The notes: generated by a model not told the origin, from the letters alone. Counted from the first letter of the stretch, positions 540-9,059 are shown. The stretch: DNA of 64,000 nt from an uncultured Eubacteriales bacterium (GCA_902801845.1 CADCJW010000002.1:305627-369626); one strand, 5' to 3'. Numbers and translations are program-made.

Positions 540-884
540 CTATTCGACCTCGATTTCCTTTATGATGCACTCATTCCCGCGGAGCAGCCAGGTCTCCCCG
601 CTGTGACAGTAGGGGCACTCCCGGCCGTACCGGACCGTGGGATAGGTGCGCTCGCAGCCGGAACAGAAGGTCACGGCGGGGATGGTTTCCAGCTCCAGCT
701 CCGCCGTCTCCAGGATGGGGTGACGCTTGCGGAAATAGTTCCAGCAGTCGGTGAAGTAGTCCGTCATGATGCCGGACACCTCCCCCACCTGGAGCGTCAC
801 CCGCAGGATCTTGTCGATTTCCTGCTCCTTAGCCGTCTCCTCCAGGGATTTAGCGAGGTGCAGGATGATGCCCATCTCGTGCAT
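540..884 (-). CDS. hypA: Hydrogenase/urease nickel incorporation protein HypA
   Basis: 114 aa with the MHE N-terminus and CxxC...CxxC zinc site (CSGCERT..CPYCHSG) typical of HypA. The start lies 1 nt after the upstream stop. Confidence 0.85.
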   Translation of the reverse strand: MHEMGIILHLAKSLEETAKEQEIDKILRVTLQVGEVSGIMTDYFTDCWNYFRKRHPILETAELELETIPAVTFCSGCERTYPTVRYGRECPYCHSGETWLLRGNECIIKEIEVE

Positions 885-885
885 A

Positions 886-3807
886 TCAGTCCTTCATGAG
901 CTCCTGAATGTCCACGGCGTTGCCCGTGTGGGGATGGGTCTTGTGGAATTCCCGGGTGGCCCGGTTGTACGCCTTGCGCTTGCGGCGCATCTCTTTGGCC
1001 TCCTCGGAACCGCTGTGGGCGATGATCTTGAAAGCCCGCTTGGCGGCGTAACTCAGCAGGCCGCCCACCTTGTCCTCCGCTCGTCTGAGATCGGAGTTCT
1101 GGGGATGATCCCGCAGCAGATGGATGGCGTCGAATTCGCAGCGGGTGGTGCACAGGCCGCAGCCGATGCACTTGTTTTCGTCCACGATGGTGGCGCCGCA
1201 GCCCAGGCACCGGGCGGTCTCCGCCTTCACCTGTTCCTCGGTGAACACCAGCCGGTTGTCCGCAAAACCGTTCTTGTGATCGACGGCGGGGTCCACCGGC
1301 GGCACCTGCCGCTGGGCGTGGTCGTAGGAATCGATGGCGATGTTGTCCTTGTCCAGGGACTTGAAGTAGCGCCGATCCCGGCCCAGGGTCTGGGACACGC
1401 TGTTTTTAGATACGAACCGGGCCAGGGATTCCGCGGCCTCGTGGCCCTGACCGATGGCGTCGATGACGAACTTGGGGCCGGTGAACACGTCGCCGCCCAC
1501 GAAGATGGCGGGATCGTCGGTCTGATAGGTGAACTTGTCCGCCACGGGGTAGTTGCCATGCCAGAACTTCACCCCCGTGCCCTCCAGAAGCTTGCCCCAC
1601 TCGATGGCCTGGCCGATGGCGAAGACGATATGCTTCGCCTCCACGGTCATGGTCTCGTTTTCGTCATACTGGGGGTTGAACTTGCCGGTGGCCGGGTCGA
1701 TGGTGGCGGTGCAGCGCTTGAGGACGATGCCCTTCACCTTTCCCTCCTCGTCCACCAGGACCTCCTTCGGTCCCCAGGAGGGGCAGATCTTCACGTTTTC
1801 TTCCTCCGCCTCGGCGATCTCCTCCGGGGAAGCGGGCATGGTCTCCCGGCTCTCCAGGCAGAACATGGACACCTTTTCGGCTCCCAGCCGATGGGCGGTC
1901 CGGGCGCAGTCGATGGCCACGTTGCCGCCGCCGATGATCACAGTGTCGCCGGACAGCTTGGGGCTGTTGTCCCCCAGGGCCTTCTCCAGGAAGCTGACGG
2001 CGATCTCGGTGCCGGGGGCGGTTTCGTTCTTCACCCCGGGGAGGCGGCCGCCCTGGCAGCCGATGGCGATGTAGAAGGCCTCGTAGCCCTGGTCCTTCAG
2101 CTGCTGGATGGTGACGTCCTTGCCCACCTCCACGCCGCAGCGGATCTCGGCGCCCAGAGCGCGGATGATGTCGATCTCCGCATCCACCACCCGCTTGTCC
2201 AGCTTGAAGGAGGGGATGCCGTAGGTCATCATGCCGCCGGGCTTGCTGTTCTTTTCAAAGACCGTGGGCCGATAGCCCCGGCTGGCCAGATAGTAGGCGC
2301 AGGAAAGGCCCGCCGGGCCGCCGCCGATGATGGCGATCTTCTGATCCCACTCCCCGGACACCCGGTTGATGACCTTTTTGGGCACATAGCGGGTCTCGGC
2401 GTGCAGGTCCCGCTCGGCCAGGAACTTTTTCACGTCGTCGATGGCCACCGGCTTGTCGATGGTGCCCCGGGTGCAGGCGTCCTCACACCGCTTGTTGCAC
2501 ACCCGGCCGCAGATAGCGGGGAAGGGATTCTCCCGCTTGATGAGGGCCAGCGCCTCGTCGTACCGGCCTTCCCGGGCCATCTTTAGATAGCCCTGGACGG
2601 GCACATGGGCGGGGCAAGCGGCCTTGCAGGGGGCGGAACCGGTTCTGTGGGTGTTGACCCGGGCGGTGTCCCGATAGTTTTCGTCCCAGGCGTACTTACC
2701 CCAGCGAATCCTGTCGGGCAGCACGGACTTGGGGTACGCTACAGGCGCGCCGTCCTTCTGGCACAGCTTCTGGCCCAGCTTCAAAGCGCCGGCGGGGCAC
2801 AGCTCCACGCAGCGGCCGCAGGCCACGCACTTCTCCTTGTCCACCCGGGCGGTGAAGGCGCTCTTGGACATGTTGGGGGTGTTGTACAGCAGGCTGGTCC
2901 TGAGGGCGTTGCAGATCTGCACGTTGCAGTTGCAGATGTCGAAGATATGGTCCATGCCGTCGATGTTGGTGATCTGGTGCACGTACCCGTTCTCCTCCGC
3001 CTTGCGCAGGATCTCCAGGGCCTCCTCCTTGGTGATATAGTGGGCCCGGCCCGTTTCCACGGTGTAGTCCGCCATATCGCCCACCTGGATGCACCAATCC
3101 TGTTCGTCGTCGGTGCAGCCCTCGCCCAGCATGGCCCGGGAGGCCCGGCAGGAGCAGATGCCCGCGGACAGATGGCCGTCGTACTTCTGGAGCCAGTAGG
3201 AGATCTTCTCCACGTCGATGCTGGTGCGCTCCGCCTGGACCTCCTTCTCCACGGGGATCACATGCATGCCGATGCCGTTGCCGCCGGGGCGGACCATGGA
3301 GGTAATGTGCTCCAGGGGCAAAAAGGTCATCCGCTCAAACATCTTGGCCACCGGCGGGTTCTTCTCGATCCGATCCACGGAGGAGTTGAACAGCTCCGCG
3401 CTGCCCGGCACAAAGTAGCTGGTGCGATAGCGGATCTCCTTGGGCGCGCCGGGGATGGGGCCGTTGTCGTCGTAGTGGTCGCCGTAGTCATACTCCACGA
3501 AGCCGTGAACGCACAGAAGGTCCAGCGTCTTTTTGAAGGTTTCGTCGTCCATGCCCCCGCTCTTTTCCCGCAGCTGCTCATAGGTATACCACTGGCGCTG
3601 CTTCATGGTCAGGGCGATGTCCACCTCGGGCTCAGTCAAAACCTCCCGAAGGCCCCAGTACTCCTCGTCCGTGGTCTTCAGACCAAAGAGCTTGTGAGGC
3701 ACGTTGTCCGTGATGCGCCGGCCCAGCTCGGCATACTTTTTGTTGAGGACGGCTTCGCCGTCATACCTGGACTTGGTGCGTGGATTGGAATCATAGATCT
3801 CCGGCAT
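886..3807 (-). CDS. 973-aa multidomain Fe-S flavoprotein: an N-terminal Cys-rich domain, 4Fe-4S motifs, a GltD-like NAD(P)H/FAD oxidoreductase core, and a C-terminal 2x[4Fe-4S] ferredoxin domain
   Basis: Motifs seen: CVACGRCVELCP, CxxxC clusters, the dinucleotide folds IAIIGGGPAGLSCAYYL and VIIGGGNVAIDCA, and C-terminal CLGCG..CIGCGLCTTRCE. RBS AAGGAGAAAG. The exact substrate is unknown. Confidence 0.75.
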   Translation of the reverse strand: MPEIYDSNPRTKSRYDGEAVLNKKYAELGRRITDNVPHKLFGLKTTDEEYWGLREVLTEPEVDIALTMKQRQWYTYEQLREKSGGMDDETFKKTLDLLCVHGFVEYDYGDHYDDNGPIPGAPKEIRYRTSYFVPGSAELFNSSVDRIEKNPPVAKMFERMTFLPLEHITSMVRPGGNGIGMHVIPVEKEVQAERTSIDVEKISYWLQKYDGHLSAGICSCRASRAMLGEGCTDDEQDWCIQVGDMADYTVETGRAHYITKEEALEILRKAEENGYVHQITNIDGMDHIFDICNCNVQICNALRTSLLYNTPNMSKSAFTARVDKEKCVACGRCVELCPAGALKLGQKLCQKDGAPVAYPKSVLPDRIRWGKYAWDENYRDTARVNTHRTGSAPCKAACPAHVPVQGYLKMAREGRYDEALALIKRENPFPAICGRVCNKRCEDACTRGTIDKPVAIDDVKKFLAERDLHAETRYVPKKVINRVSGEWDQKIAIIGGGPAGLSCAYYLASRGYRPTVFEKNSKPGGMMTYGIPSFKLDKRVVDAEIDIIRALGAEIRCGVEVGKDVTIQQLKDQGYEAFYIAIGCQGGRLPGVKNETAPGTEIAVSFLEKALGDNSPKLSGDTVIIGGGNVAIDCARTAHRLGAEKVSMFCLESRETMPASPEEIAEAEEENVKICPSWGPKEVLVDEEGKVKGIVLKRCTATIDPATGKFNPQYDENETMTVEAKHIVFAIGQAIEWGKLLEGTGVKFWHGNYPVADKFTYQTDDPAIFVGGDVFTGPKFVIDAIGQGHEAAESLARFVSKNSVSQTLGRDRRYFKSLDKDNIAIDSYDHAQRQVPPVDPAVDHKNGFADNRLVFTEEQVKAETARCLGCGATIVDENKCIGCGLCTTRCEFDAIHLLRDHPQNSDLRRAEDKVGGLLSYAAKRAFKIIAHSGSEEAKEMRRKRKAYNRATREFHKTHPHTGNAVDIQELMKD

Positions 3808-3836
3808 GGTCTTTCTCCTTCTATTGAAATGTTTTT

Positions 3837-4499
3837 TTATTTTCCCTGATTGTCCAAAATGGCCCTCTCGAGCCAGGTTTCCCAGTCGGCAAAGCCGTCC
3901 CCGGTCTTGGCGGAGACCTCAAAGATCTCGATGTGGGGGTTCAGGCCCCGGGCCCGCCGCTTGCAGGCCTCGAAGTCGAAGTCGAAGCAGGCGGCCACGT
4001 CCGTCTTGGTCAGGATCAGTACGTCGCTGACCGTGAACATGAGGGGATATTTGAGGGGCTTGTCGTCCCCCTCGGGCACGCTCAGGAGCATGACCCGCTT
4101 CTGGGCGCCGGTGTCGAACTCCGCGGGGCAGATGAGGTTCCCCACGTTCTCCAACACCACCAAATCGAAACGTTCGTCCCCCAGCTCATCGAGGGCGGCC
4201 CTGGTCATGCCCGCGTCCATATGGCACATGCCTCCGGTGTGGGCCTGGACGGCCTTGGCCCCCAGCTTTTCGATGCGGACCGCGTCCACGTCGGAATCCA
4301 CGTCCGCCTCCATGACCGCGATGCTGAACCGATCCTTCATGTCCCGGATGGTCCGCTCCAAAAGGGTGGTCTTCCCCGCCCCCGGCGAGGCCATCAGATT
4401 GATGAGCAGGGTGCCCCTGTCCGTCAGTTCCTGCCTGAGCACCGCCGCGTCCCGGTCGTTGGACGCGGTGACGGTCTCCTTCAGCTCGATGATCCGCAT
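3837..4499 (-). CDS. hypB: Nickel-binding GTPase HypB
   Basis: P-loop SPGAGKTTLL, ENVGNLICPAEFD and TKTD motifs (SIMIBI G3E family). RBS GGGAGGGAG. Confidence 0.85.
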   Translation of the reverse strand: MRIIELKETVTASNDRDAAVLRQELTDRGTLLINLMASPGAGKTTLLERTIRDMKDRFSIAVMEADVDSDVDAVRIEKLGAKAVQAHTGGMCHMDAGMTRAALDELGDERFDLVVLENVGNLICPAEFDTGAQKRVMLLSVPEGDDKPLKYPLMFTVSDVLILTKTDVAACFDFDFEACKRRARGLNPHIEIFEVSAKTGDGFADWETWLERAILDNQGK

Positions 4500-4733
4500 A
4501 TCTCTCTCCCTCCCCGGATCCAGTCCGTATTTTTAATTGTACCGGATATTATCGAAAAGTGCAAGAGAAAGAGACGGGCAGGGAACCTGTTTACTTCCCT
4601 TCCCGCCTGTGATACAATATCATCAAATGAAGTCCCCCGGAGGGACGGGACGCAGCGGCGATGGGGGAAAAAAGCTCCTTCGCCCGGATCTGACCTGAAA
4701 ACTCATTTTGACTTTACAAGGAGGATTTGATCA

Positions 4734-6170
4734 ATGGCTGTTTTGTCCGGCCTGGAGCCGAAAGCGGTGTTCACTTTCTTTGAGACCCTCTGCGCCATCC
4801 CCCGGGCCTCCCACAACACGGAGGCCGTCAGCGAGTACCTCTTTTCCTTCGCCCAGCAGCGGGGCCTGAAGGCCCGCCGGGACGAGGCCAACAACGTGAT
4901 CGTTTGGAAGGACGCCGCCCCGGGCTATGAGGAGGCCCCCACCGTCATGCTCCAGGCTCATATGGACATGCTGATGGAGCGGGATCACCATCTCAGCGCT
5001 CCGGAAGGGGCGGGTGTCGAGCTGTTCCTGGAGGGGGACGAGATCGGCGCCAAGGGCACCTCCCTGGGGGCGGACGACGGGATCGGCGTGGCCATGATGC
5101 TGGCGGTCCTCAGCGACGACAGCCTCCGCCACGGGCCCCTCGAATGCGTGTTCACCGCCGACGAGGAGGTGGGCCTCCAGGGCGTTCGGGCGCTGGACGT
5201 GTCCGATTTGAAGGCCAAGTATATGATCAACCTGGATTCCGCCGAGGAGCGGGTGTTCACCGTGAGCTGCGCCGGGTCCACCCGGGTGGTCACCACCCTG
5301 CCCGTGCAGCGGGCCCCCTTCGCGGGAACGGTCTGCGCCCTCATGGTGGACGGGCTCACCGGCGGTCACTCCGGCGAGGACATCCATCGGGGCCGGGCCA
5401 ACGCCAACCGGCTCATGGGCCGGGCCCTTATGGCGATCATGGACAAAACGGACATGCGGCTGCTCACCGTTTCCGGCGGCGCCAAGGACAACACCATCCC
5501 CCGAGACGCGGCGGCGCTGATCTCGGTGGCCGACCCGGAGGCGGCCAAGGCGGCGGCCGCGGACCTGGCCGAAACGCTGCAGGACGAGTATCGGGCCGTG
5601 GAGAAGAAGGTCCGCATCCGGCTCTTCCCCACCCGGAGCCACTTTTTGCCCATGGATGAAAAGAGCACCCGTCGGGCGGCCACCTTCCTCTTCTGCGCCC
5701 CGGACGGGGTCCAGATGATGAGCGCGGAGGTGCCCGGGCTGGTCCAGACCTCGCTGAATTTCGCCCAGATCTACACCGAGGACGCCGCCGTGGTGTGCCG
5801 GTTCATGATCCGCTCCAGCCTAAACTCCCAGGCGGAGGAGGTGGCCCGGCGGGTCATGGCCATGGCCCGGGCCATGGGCGGCGACGCCACGGTGCCCTCC
5901 GCCTATTCCGCCTGGCAGTATCGGCCCCACTCCCACCTCAGGGACGTGATGACCGACGCCTTCCACACGGTCTACGGCACAGAGCCCCGGATCGAGGCCC
6001 TTCACGCCAGCTTGGAGTGCGGCATCCTCTCGGGGAAGATGCCGGAGCTGGAGTGCATCTCCTTCGGCCCGGACATCGTCAACGACCATACCCCCCGGGA
6101 GCGGCTCCGCGTAGCCTCCACCTGGCGCACCTGGGCGCTGCTGCTGGAGGGATTGCGGCGATTGAAGTAA
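4734..6170 (+). CDS. pepD: Aminoacyl-histidine (Xaa-His) dipeptidase PepD, copy 1
   Basis: 478 aa, M20C-like motifs (QAHMDM, GADDGIGVA, FTADEEVGL, HTPRERL). RBS AAGGAGG. Confidence 0.85.
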   Translation: MAVLSGLEPKAVFTFFETLCAIPRASHNTEAVSEYLFSFAQQRGLKARRDEANNVIVWKDAAPGYEEAPTVMLQAHMDMLMERDHHLSAPEGAGVELFLEGDEIGAKGTSLGADDGIGVAMMLAVLSDDSLRHGPLECVFTADEEVGLQGVRALDVSDLKAKYMINLDSAEERVFTVSCAGSTRVVTTLPVQRAPFAGTVCALMVDGLTGGHSGEDIHRGRANANRLMGRALMAIMDKTDMRLLTVSGGAKDNTIPRDAAALISVADPEAAKAAAADLAETLQDEYRAVEKKVRIRLFPTRSHFLPMDEKSTRRAATFLFCAPDGVQMMSAEVPGLVQTSLNFAQIYTEDAAVVCRFMIRSSLNSQAEEVARRVMAMARAMGGDATVPSAYSAWQYRPHSHLRDVMTDAFHTVYGTEPRIEALHASLECGILSGKMPELECISFGPDIVNDHTPRERLRVASTWRTWALLLEGLRRLK

Positions 6171-6317: not shown

Positions 6318-6424
6318 TTAAAAAGTCGAAGGTTTCACACTGGTGACACATTTCGACGATACGATCCACGATCACATGGCCCCCTGTCGGGGGCTTTGGG
6401 ATAGAAAAAAAGGAGGGGTAATTT

Positions 6425-7540
6425 ATGATTACCAATGGTTTCACCTATTTTGCCACATTGGTCCTGATCGCTGGCGTCCTGGTCGGCGCCCAGAAGCTGA
6501 CCAAGTGGAAGTTCTTCGAGTATGTGCCCCCGGTGGTGCTGCTCTACCTCATCGGCATGCTGGGCTGCACCTTCAAGCTGTGGGACACCGCGGCCACCAA
6601 GGAAGCTTACAGCGCCCTGCGTAACCCGATCCTGTATGCCATGATCTTCGTCATGTTGCTCCGCTGCGACATCCGTCAGATCCTGAAGCTGGGACCCAAG
6701 ATGCTGCTGGGCTTCTTCACCGCCACCATCACCATCGCCATCGGCTTCGTGGCCACCTACGCCATCATGCATCCCTTGCTGGGCGAAGGCGCCTGGCGCG
6801 GCCTTGGCGCCCTGTGCGGCAGCTGGATGGGCGGCTCCGGCAACCTGGTCGCCGTGGCGGACGCTCTGCAGGCCACGGAGGCGCAGCTGGCCGGCGCGTC
6901 CATCGTGGACTCTATCGACTACTCCATCTGGGTCATGTTCCTGCTGTGGGCCATCACCCTGGCGCCCAAGTTCAACAAGTGGGTCAAGGCCAACACCAAG
7001 ACCCTGGACGAAGTTTCCTCCCGTCTCGACGCCGAGTTCGCTCAGGCGCAGACCAAGAAGGTGGACTTCCCGTCCCTCATCTTCCTGCTGGGCCTCGCCC
7101 TGTTCGTGTCCGCCGTGTGCACCAACCTGGGCACCGCGCTCCGCGACGCTTCCCCCTCTTGGCTGAAGGTCTTTGACGTGGCCACCTACCGGATCGTGCT
7201 GGTGTCCATCATCGGTCTGGTCCTGGCCATGACCCCCGTGGGCAAGATCGCCGGCTCCACGGAGCTGTCCAACATCATGCTGTACATGGTCATCGGCCTC
7301 ATCGCCTCCCGCGCCTCCTTCCTGGAGCTCTTCGAGGCGGGCATGGCCTGGTGGATCGTGGCGGGCTTCGTGATCCTGCTCATCCACGGCGTGCTGATGA
7401 TCCTCTTTGCCAAGCTCTTCAAGCTGGATATGTTCACCGGTCTCCGTGGGCGTGCTGATGGCCCTCATGGGCTATGTGGTGGGCACCTTCGGCGGCATTG
7501 GTGTAGGTTATCTTATGTCGATTTTCGGTTAATGGCATAA
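6425..7540 (+). CDS. DUF819-family polytopic membrane protein. The 3' end appears frameshifted (see findings).
   Basis: Hydrophobic multi-TM translation, RBS AAGGAGG. After about aa 337 the listed frame turns Arg/Gly/His-rich, while the +1 frame encodes a TM-like tail ending at 7532. Confidence 0.65.
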   Translation: MITNGFTYFATLVLIAGVLVGAQKLTKWKFFEYVPPVVLLYLIGMLGCTFKLWDTAATKEAYSALRNPILYAMIFVMLLRCDIRQILKLGPKMLLGFFTATITIAIGFVATYAIMHPLLGEGAWRGLGALCGSWMGGSGNLVAVADALQATEAQLAGASIVDSIDYSIWVMFLLWAITLAPKFNKWVKANTKTLDEVSSRLDAEFAQAQTKKVDFPSLIFLLGLALFVSAVCTNLGTALRDASPSWLKVFDVATYRIVLVSIIGLVLAMTPVGKIAGSTELSNIMLYMVIGLIASRASFLELFEAGMAWWIVAGFVILLIHGVLMILFAKLFKLDMFTGLRGRADGPHGLCGGHLRRHWCRLSYVDFRLMA

Positions 7541-7619: not shown

Positions 7620-9059
7620 ATGGGCGTTTTATCCGGTTTGCAGCCGCAGGTAGTCTTTCATTTCTTTGAGGAGCTGTGCGCCATCCCCCACGGGTCCCAC
7701 AACACCAAGGCGATCAGCGACTATCTGGTGGCCTTCGCCGAAAAGCGGCACTTGAAGTTCCGTCAGGACGAGCTCAACAACGTCGTCATCTGGAAGGCCC
7801 CCACGGCGGGCTATGAGCATGCCCCCGCGGTCATGATCCAGGGCCACATGGACATGGTGGCCGAAAAGGACGCGGACTGCCCCAAGGACATGGAGAAGGA
7901 GGGGTTGGACCTCTTCGTAGACGGGGACACTGTGGGCGCCCGGGGCACCACCCTGGGCGGCGACGACGGCATCGCCGTAGCCATGGCCCTGGCCGTTTTG
8001 GATGGGGACGATATCCCCCACGGGCCCCTGGAATGTTTGTTCACCGTGGACGAGGAGGTGGGCATGCTGGGCGCCCGGGGCCTCGACACTTCGGATCTTG
8101 CGGCCAAGTATATGCTGAACGTGGACTCCGAGGAGGAGAAGGTCCTCACCGTCAGCTGCGCCGGGTCCACCCGGGCGGTCTGCACGCTGCCCATCGAGCG
8201 GGCCGCCTTTACGGGCACGGTCTGCGCTCTCACCGTGGACGGGCTCATGGGCGGCCACTCCGGCGAGGAGATCCACAAATGCCGGGCCAATTCGAACATC
8301 CTCATGGGCCGGGCCCTGATCGAGCTCATGAACGTCACGGGCCTTCGGATCATCGCCCTTTCCGGCGGCGCCAAGGACAACGCCATCCCCCGGGACGCCA
8401 AGGCGCTGATCGCTGTGGAGGACTTCGCGGCGGCCAAGGCGGCGGCAGAGGCCCTGGACGCGGCGGTGAAGAACGAGTATCGGACCGCCGATCCCGACGT
8501 GCGGATCGGGCTGGCCCCCGCGGAGACGGACCTGGTCCCCCTGGACGAAAACAGCACCCGCCGGGTGGCCACCTTCCTCTTCTGCGCCCCCAACGGGGTC
8601 CAGATGATGAGCGCCGAAGTGGCGGGTCTGGTGCAAACCTCCCTGAACCTGGGCCAGGTGAGCACCGAGGACAGCACCGTCACCGCCCGGTTCATGATCC
8701 GCTCCAGCGTCAATTCCCAGGCTGCCGAGACCACGGAGAAGGTCATCGCCCTGACGAAGCTGTTGGGCGGCACGGTGGACATCCCCGCCGCCTACTCCGC
8801 CTGGCAGTATCGGCCCGAATCCCACCTCAGGGACGTGATGGTGGAGGCCTTCCGGGCGGTCTACGGCGAGGAGCCCAAGATCGCCGCCCTCCACGCAGGC
8901 CTGGAGTGCGGGATCCTCTCCGGAAAGATGCCGGAACTGGACTGCATCTCCTTCGGGCCGGATCTGATGAACATCCATACGCCCCGGGAGCGGCTCCACA
9001 TCGCCTCCACGGAGCGGACCTGGGCCCTCATGCTGGAGACCCTCAAGCGCCTGAAATAA
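7620..9059 (+). CDS. pepD: Aminoacyl-histidine dipeptidase PepD, copy 2 (paralog of 4734..6170)
   Basis: 479 aa, colinear with copy 1, with roughly two-thirds identical residues by eye. RBS AAGGAG. Confidence 0.85.
   Translation: MGVLSGLQPQVVFHFFEELCAIPHGSHNTKAISDYLVAFAEKRHLKFRQDELNNVVIWKAPTAGYEHAPAVMIQGHMDMVAEKDADCPKDMEKEGLDLFVDGDTVGARGTTLGGDDGIAVAMALAVLDGDDIPHGPLECLFTVDEEVGMLGARGLDTSDLAAKYMLNVDSEEEKVLTVSCAGSTRAVCTLPIERAAFTGTVCALTVDGLMGGHSGEEIHKCRANSNILMGRALIELMNVTGLRIIALSGGAKDNAIPRDAKALIAVEDFAAAKAAAEALDAAVKNEYRTADPDVRIGLAPAETDLVPLDENSTRRVATFLFCAPNGVQMMSAEVAGLVQTSLNLGQVSTEDSTVTARFMIRSSVNSQAAETTEKVIALTKLLGGTVDIPAAYSAWQYRPESHLRDVMVEAFRAVYGEEPKIAALHAGLECGILSGKMPELDCISFGPDLMNIHTPRERLHIASTERTWALMLETLKRLK

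Follow-up and report, generated by a model that had tools for sequence, protein, structure and literature searches.

Here we describe a three-gene operon near the beginning of a 64,000-nt stretch of DNA from an uncultured Eubacteriales bacterium (GCA_902801845.1 CADCJW010000002.1:305627-369626; hereafter the window), in which genes for the nickel chaperones HypB and HypA bracket the gene of a large iron-sulphur (Fe-S) flavoprotein. The encoded protein resembles IsrA of Acetobacterium wieringae ISORED-2 / strain Y, a putative isoprene reductase with 901 residues (Kronen et al. 2023, mSystems, PMC10134865). We consider it likely that the operon joins an IsrA-family multi-cluster Fe-S flavoprotein reductase with its own dedicated nickel chaperones, a reading that draws on the anatomy of the operon, the conservation of the enzyme and its neighbours, and the nickel enzyme content of the host genome.

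The operon, its products and the host genome

The gene order hypB, reductase, hypA on the minus strand, and the coordinates given for the three genes by a first-pass annotation of this DNA, were confirmed to the base (Table 1). The 29 nt between hypB and the reductase gene contain a GAAGGAG ribosome-binding site, and a single nucleotide parts the reductase stop codon from the hypA start codon (TGAtATG), an arrangement in which hypA is probably translationally coupled to the gene before it. Downstream, a terminator-like hairpin closes the operon and also serves pepT, which converges on the three-gene unit from the left, while a pepD-like dipeptidase gene diverges from it on the right. The short gaps, the hairpin and the orientation of the flanking genes thus define a closed three-gene operon, in agreement with the single operon that the first-pass annotation had thought very likely. 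A sigma-70 scan found no promoter on the operon strand, the lone sigma-70-like match lying on the plus strand. An Rfam scan of the whole window returned zero family matches, and therefore no riboswitch upstream of hypB.

Table 1. Features of the hypB-reductase-hypA operon, with positions counted from the first nucleotide of the window
Feature	Position	Strand	Description
hypB	3837-4499	minus	220 aa; GTPase nickel chaperone, short type
IsrA-family Fe-S flavoprotein reductase gene	886-3807	minus	973 aa
hypA	540-884	minus	114 aa; nickel/zinc metallochaperone
N-terminal domain of the reductase, aa 1-320	2848-3807	minus	no Pfam or NCBIfam match; putative catalytic and nickel-binding domain
Cys-rich segment C218-S-C220...C239...H277...C292-N-C294...C299	2911-3156	minus	Cys6 site, two CxC motifs
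[4Fe-4S] CxxCxxCxxxCP, C327-C337, with NfnB/DPD-type cluster domain	2404-2847	minus	PF00037, PF14691
GltD-like FAD/NAD(P)H domain, residues 488-800	1408-2346	minus	PF07992 95.5 bits; NF009410 438 bits; IIGGGPAG, IIGGGNVAID
C-terminal 2x[4Fe-4S] ferredoxin motif C867, C870, C880, C883, C886, C890	1099-1221	minus	PF13459 875-903, PF14697 874-898
Intrinsic-terminator-like GC-rich hairpin and T-run	498-519	minus	sequence scan
hypB / pepD-like divergent intergenic region	4500-4733		presumed promoter region

The reductase consists, from its N-terminus, of an unannotated domain followed by Fer4, Fer4_20, Pyr_redox_2 and 2x[4Fe-4S] modules, with a GltD/NfnB-like core at residues 383-902. Within this core the PF14691 cluster domain occupies residues 391-468 and supplies the cysteines C394, C398, C433, C437, C441 and C445. 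Altogether the protein has 16 canonical cysteines, enough for four [4Fe-4S] clusters, and all of them are invariant in full-length family members that are 35-53% identical. In the same members the N-terminal domain keeps C218, C220, R221, C239, H277, C292, N293, C294 and C299 without exception. The cysteine motifs to which the first-pass annotation had drawn attention (C218-S-C220...C231...C239 and C292-N-C294...C299) are present in the protein, C231 being the one cysteine among them that varies within the family, and the two CxC motifs (C218/C220 to C292/C294) are spaced 74 residues apart.

The N-terminal domain is highly conserved, with a mean column identity of 68% in 36 sequences from three phyla (Clostridia, Erysipelotrichales/Bacilli, Atopobiaceae), and occurs in over 8000 relatives when these are clustered at 90%. 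Mapping this region, as the first-pass annotation had proposed, brought no family assignment for residues 1-320 from Pfam or NCBIfam. A sequence-profile search of the PDB with the domain found no credible relative, the best hit being a helical stretch of yeast Vps38 (E 9e-4) that we take as chance, and a Foldseek search with an AlphaFold2 (AF2) model of the domain gave nothing at E<=0.001, with winged-helix pieces (RPC62, MarR-like) appearing at E>0.01. As modelled, the domain would have winged-helix-like elements and no structural analogue, acetyl-CoA synthase (ACS), carbon monoxide dehydrogenase (CODH) and hydrogenase included. The model has a predicted local distance difference test score (pLDDT) of 72, with the invariant loop at residues 164-196 disordered; within it the invariant motif PGGxGIGMHVIPVE (approximately residues 173-187) is modelled at very low confidence, as would be expected if this segment folded only around a cofactor. 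The Cys6 domain occurs also in proteins of ∼375-485 aa (P0126, P0127, P0134, P0136 and others), some of which may be fragments and others a stand-alone domain plus ferredoxin, like the ferredoxin of the isr operon.

Both chaperones are recognisable members of their families. HypB scores 248 bits against TIGR00073 (cut-off 121) and matches PF02492 too. Its P-loop reads SPGAGKTT, and the further motifs GMCHMD and ENVGNLICPA can be read from it, so that the P-loop GTPase fold motifs and the CH...C metal site in the G domain are retained in a protein that has neither a His-rich nor a CxxCGC N-terminus. HypA scores 103.5 bits against PF01155 (cut-off 28.9) and 71.8 bits against TIGR00100, which is under the equivalog cut-off of 88.1 and marks it as a divergent member of the HypA family. 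It retains the Met-His-Glu N-terminus (MHEMG), the element of HypA that binds nickel, together with the two CxxC pairs (CSGC, CPYC) of the Zn site. The genome holds one copy each of hypA, hypB and the N-terminal domain of the reductase.

HypA and HypB classically serve [NiFe]-hydrogenase or urease, and the first-pass annotation had remarked that no nickel enzyme is encoded within ∼4 kb of the operon. This holds for the whole host genome, a rumen-type Clostridia genome of 2.44 Mb in 11 contigs that is 97.6% complete: it contains no [NiFe]-hydrogenase large subunit (PF00374), no CODH or hybrid-cluster protein (HCP; PF03063), no urease alpha subunit (PF00449) and no HypD (PF01924). A hydrogenase operon just beyond the edge of the window, which would have given the chaperones a conventional purpose, is likewise found nowhere in the genome, in which no further known client of HypAB is encoded.

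Two genes of the LarA-like, nickel-pincer racemase family are present elsewhere in the genome (G000:C4:175812-176390, that is locus L081, open reading frame 1483-2736; and G000:C9:56127-56576, locus L082), and the LarC nickel insertase (PF01969) was not found in the 97.6%-complete assembly. One of the two runs over the end of a split pair of transketolase genes, and a malic-enzyme gene comes after it, a setting that suggests a role as a sugar or hydroxy-acid epimerase. We regard these LarA-like genes without LarC as an oddity and not as a likely HypAB client.

Conservation of hypA and hypB beside the reductase

Scanning one genome per species brought up at least 407 relatives of the reductase, and the best 80 loci were analysed with flanks of ∼10 kb. 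These loci come from Clostridia, Erysipelotrichaceae, Bacilli and Atopobiaceae. The hypA gene stands immediately downstream of the enzyme gene in 66 of the 80, and hypB lies inside the flanks in 54, mostly directly upstream, so that the bracketing seen in the window is no peculiarity of one strain. Locus L074, from the cultured Olsenella porci CA-Schmier-601-WT-1, likewise has the order hypB-enzyme-hypA. When the neighbouring open reading frames of the same 80 loci were clustered, only the enzyme, hypA and hypB proved conserved, apart from a homolog of the linoleate isomerase PAI in 17 loci, a CrtI-like flavoprotein in 5 and, here and there, ATP-binding cassette (ABC) ATPases, MatE proteins and flavin reductases. 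Three relatives have taxonomic labels that clash with their Firmicutes-like gene content and with the position of their HypA among Erysipelotrichaceae in the HypA tree (L031, labelled Escherichia coli; L025, Gammaproteobacteria; L080, Prevotellaceae). These are probably mis-binned or mislabelled contigs rather than cases of cross-phylum transfer.

The association is tighter still in an even set of 201 genomes from the order to which the window genome belongs. A full-length enzyme is encoded in 22 of these genomes and HypA in all 22 (Fisher p = 4e-19), and hypA lies within 240 nt of 27 of the 28 full-length enzyme genes, the exception being on a contig whose sequence ends. [NiFe]-hydrogenase (PF00374) is missing from all 22 carriers. 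HypA is found in 18 of the remaining genomes, of which 15 have a hydrogenase-like large subunit, often encoded right beside hypA. In this order, then, hypA mostly adjoins its client, which is either an Ech-type hydrogenase or an IsrA-type flavoprotein. Mutual exclusion between the enzyme and [NiFe]-hydrogenase in this sample (hydrogenase in 0/22 carriers vs 16/179 other genomes) is not significant alone (p = 0.14).

Six genomes of the order (G199, G122, G053, G082, G108 and G016) encode two full-length paralogs, which are 48-67% identical to the window protein. Each paralog in the two-paralog genomes has its own hypA beside it, and the five such genomes with recoverable flanks have two hypA genes each. 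The pairing of every paralog with a hypA of its own points to several substrate specificities in one organism.

A tree of HypA proteins places 65 enzyme-linked sequences on one side of a single branch (support 89/96), parted by long branches from the few alignable hydrogenase-linked ones. Enzyme-linked HypA would thus appear to be a lineage of its own, a result that is supportive rather than conclusive because the outgroup is thin and long-branched, with only 5 of the 16 fetched HypA that are not enzyme-linked similar enough to be placed.

Proposed nickel delivery, alternative readings and possible substrates

On the reading that we prefer, the GTPase HypB together with HypA would bring Ni(II) to the N-terminal domain of the reductase, where the target would be the six invariant cysteines in two CxC motifs with the invariant His and Arg, a site that probably holds an Fe-S cluster too. 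Electrons would enter through the FAD/NAD(P)H module of GltD/NfnB type, or be supplied by ferredoxin, and travel along the four canonical [4Fe-4S] clusters to the N-terminal site, at which an unactivated C=C bond would be reduced. The most plausible target is one of the double bonds in a conjugated diene, as has been proposed for isoprene in IsrA. The parts of this scheme differ in strength. That nickel is inserted into the enzyme at all seems to us somewhat better than an even bet; that the Cys6 site is where it resides is evenly balanced, and the chances that the reaction is C=C reduction are, in our estimate, about equal either way.

Three other explanations were weighed. The hypA and hypB genes might serve some other nickel enzyme elsewhere in the cell, with the flavoprotein as its electron partner or as an unrelated passenger. 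The classical clients of HypAB lend this a certain appeal, and the two LarA-like genes without LarC could mean that some nickel-cofactor enzyme lacks a known maturase, but the near-complete genome has no hydrogenase, CODH/HCP, urease or HypD. LarA receives its nickel-pincer cofactor already assembled, a route in which HypAB are not known to take part, and one of the LarA-like genes stands in an unrelated transketolase/malic-enzyme operon. Since hypA moreover adjoins 27 of the 28 enzyme genes in the order sample, each paralog having a hypA to itself, and no carrier has a [NiFe]-hydrogenase, we hold this explanation to be very improbable; it includes the first-pass suggestion that the protein is the electron partner of a distal nickel enzyme, which did not survive the genome and order surveys. 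Still harder to credit, to the point of being barely tenable, is an ordinary electron-transfer subunit of GltD/NfnB/YgfK type (for glutamate synthase, Nfn or a selenate-reductase partner) with hyp genes next to it by chance. The core at residues 383-902 does match the PRK12771, gltA, gltD and YgfK models with E values of 1e-76 to 1e-131, but every such NCBIfam model scores under its curated cut-off (TIGR01316, gltA, 280 vs 472; TIGR01318 259 vs 483; TIGR03315, YgfK, 257 vs 835; NF009410 438 vs 516). With the glutamate synthase, AegA/YgfT and YgfK equivalogs so far below cut-off, the 973-aa protein is none of these enzymes. The GltD/NfnB/YgfK families lack the 320-aa N-terminal domain, and the adjacency of hypA is kept across phyla, which excludes chance.

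The remaining alternative, which we judge fairly improbable, is that the enzyme contains Fe-S and FAD only and that the HypAB-like proteins deliver Zn or Fe, or assemble or quality-control the Cys6 site as a double-cubane or P-cluster-like Fe-S centre. CxC motifs bind Fe-S clusters too, and Kronen et al. likened the Cys6 site to P-type and double-cubane clusters (PMC10134865). The metal specificity of a HypA that scores under the TIGR00100 cut-off and belongs to a separate lineage could also have shifted. Several observations that favour this alternative also weigh against our own reading. The fetched flanks of 14 of the 80 relatives hold no hypA and those of 26 no hypB, and the chaperones may for that reason not be strictly required. 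The genome lacks CbiM/NikM and NiCoT, two common nickel importer families, in a search that could not separate NikABCDE-type ABC importers from peptide importers. Further points count against the scheme as a whole: the peptidase neighbours of the operon offer no hint of a substrate, AF2 confidence for the N-terminal domain is only moderate, the window protein fits the IsrA "clade 9" family by comparison with the published description only, and no family member has been purified, nickel being still a hypothesis as of February 2026 (PMC10134865; bioRxiv 10.64898/2026.02.25.708027). On the other side, HypB retains its CH...C metal site and scores well over the HypB equivalog cut-off. HypA retains both the nickel-binding N-terminus and the Zn site, and we know of no non-nickel role for HypA/HypB pairs. 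Recruitment of the chaperones to metallate the reductase, which the first-pass annotation had listed among its possibilities, is consequently the best supported of them; the support is comparative-genomic and comprises the 27/28 adjacency, the one hypA per paralog and the separate HypA lineage.

As to the substrate, the most suggestive neighbour is PAI. A PAI homolog lies within 10 kb of the enzyme in the 17 loci mentioned above, often in the order PAI-hypB-enzyme-hypA, and the neighbour matches the Cutibacterium acnes linoleate isomerase PAI (PDB 2b9w) with E 1.7e-111. Relatives with this link are 60-82% identical to the window protein and include L010, L012 and L015 (80-82%). PAI is encoded in 5 of the 201 genomes of the order sample, each of which has the enzyme as well (Fisher p = 1e-5). 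The window genome itself has no PAI gene and no CrtI-like neighbour. PAI makes a conjugated diene, the chemical class to which isoprene and 1,3-butadiene also belong. This product, together with the adjacency of PAI to the enzyme in relatives, suggests that at least part of the gut and rumen clade may hydrogenate conjugated fatty acids.

A bolder extension, which is possible though on balance doubtful, is that the rumen/gut clade is a nickel-dependent conjugated-diene fatty acid reductase, the genetically undefined "CLA reductase" (conjugated linoleic acid reductase) of biohydrogenation, and also a new nickel enzyme class. Its substrates would then be conjugated linoleic and linolenic acids from PAI-type isomerases, which a PAI-less organism such as the window genome would obtain from neighbouring bacteria, and two Cys-X-Cys motifs would hold its Ni-Fe-S site, for whose maturation HypAB would suffice. 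In L010, L012, L015, L011 and L032 (e.g. L015:2770-5741) a PAI-like isomerase gene directly followed by the gene of a CrtI/RetSat-like 513-aa FAD protein lies a few kb upstream of the IsrA-like gene; this FAD protein is a second candidate double-bond reductase in those neighbourhoods.

Should nickel be confirmed, the IsrA family would be a new class on the short list of nickel enzymes, and a third client type for HypA/HypB, one needing no HypCDEF. Among anaerobes of the rumen and gut the family is very common. The chemistry proposed for it, reduction of unactivated C=C bonds, is difficult, and bears on the biohydrogenation of ruminal fat, which determines the fatty-acid profile of milk and meat, as well as on anaerobic isoprene and terpene turnover. 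The locus described here adds no new concept to this picture. It is a clean minimal example, a three-gene unit in a genome with no further known HypAB client, and therefore a good candidate for expression work.

The genes around the operon encode peptidases, a DUF819 membrane protein, a PGA_cap protein and an esterase. Two paralogous genes of the PepD-like beta-Ala-His dipeptidase family lie at 4734-6170 and 7620-9059, with the gene of the DUF819 membrane protein between them (6425-7540), and pepT lies at 1-492 on the plus strand; together these genes may form a small peptide-utilisation cluster. Users of automated gene callers should be aware that long antisense open reading frames with high G+C at third codon positions run over hypB (3850-4536, plus strand) and over the DUF819 gene (6335-7468, minus strand). 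They have no family matches and are probably artefacts of the 62% G+C content, which would mislead a naive caller.

Comparison with known systems

Delivery of nickel to [NiFe]-hydrogenase, or to the urease of Helicobacter pylori, is carried out by HypA and HypB of the same chaperone families as those encoded here, with conserved metal and GTPase motifs. The HypB of the window is of the short, H. pylori-like type that has no N-terminal high-affinity site. Unlike the classical HypAB systems, however, this one is found in a genome without hydrogenase large subunit, urease or HypD, and its HypA has a sub-equivalog score and a place in what appears to be a separate lineage.

The core of the 973-aa protein, here residues 383-802, has two [4Fe-4S] clusters with FAD and NAD(P)H sites, as do flavoproteins of NfnB, GltD and dihydropyrimidine dehydrogenase (DPD) type. 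It differs from them in the addition of an N-terminal Cys6 domain, a Fer4 domain and a C-terminal ferredoxin, and in the absence of a partner-subunit gene. PAI of C. acnes (PDB 2b9w) is a neighbour of relatives, and its tie to the window locus is by orthology only. With the A-cluster of ACS ([4Fe-4S]-Ni-Ni, Cys-Gly-Cys) the N-terminal domain shares a Cys-X-Cys motif by a presumed Fe-S cluster that ends an electron chain; there is no similarity of sequence or fold, and the likeness, which was also drawn for the Cys6 site by Kronen et al. (PMC10134865), is an analogy.

By far the closest parallel is IsrA itself. The isr operon has five genes, among them two hypA, one hypB and a ferredoxin gene, and is induced by isoprene, HypA and HypB included, in a host whose genome has neither [NiFe]-hydrogenase nor hypCDEF (PMC10134865). 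In a Pelotomaculum culture that reduces isoprene, hypA and hypB are reported to be induced 373- and 585-fold (bioRxiv 10.64898/2026.02.25.708027). A neighbourhood network built on 988 "clade 9" homologs of IsrA gave hypA and hypB co-occurrence values of 0.73 and 0.56, and insertion of nickel by HypAB at the Cys6 site was already proposed for IsrA (PMC10134865). The first-pass suggestion of an unrecognised nickel-dependent redox system thus stands in part: the nickel-dependent system is retained as a hypothesis, and "unrecognised" falls, since the system was described in 2023 with IsrA and its 988 homologs (PMC10134865). The family, its hypA/hypB synteny and the nickel hypothesis are all in print, and the present locus is a further member of a biochemically unproven kind.

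The two systems differ in several respects. The window protein has 973 aa vs 901 in IsrA, and family members of 905-911 aa are 46% identical to it. Its operon has three genes vs five and lacks both the second hypA and the separate ferredoxin with the N-terminal domain, and its host is a rumen-type Clostridia genome, vs an acetogen, with no link to isoprene. The substrate here probably differs from isoprene too, because homologs in other Acetobacterium species that are 47-49% identical do not reduce it (PMC10134865). Set against these differences, the likeness by published description is extensive. Both proteins have the same domain order, with an unannotated N-terminal domain of ∼300 aa, four [4Fe-4S] clusters, an NfnB-like core and a C-terminal ferredoxin. 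In IsrA the four canonical sites are joined by a fifth, "Cys6" site with CxC motifs at Cys180/182 and Cys254/256 (PMC10134865), and the two motifs are 74 residues apart in both proteins. The two systems further share the adjacency of hypA and hypB and a host genome free of [NiFe]-hydrogenase.

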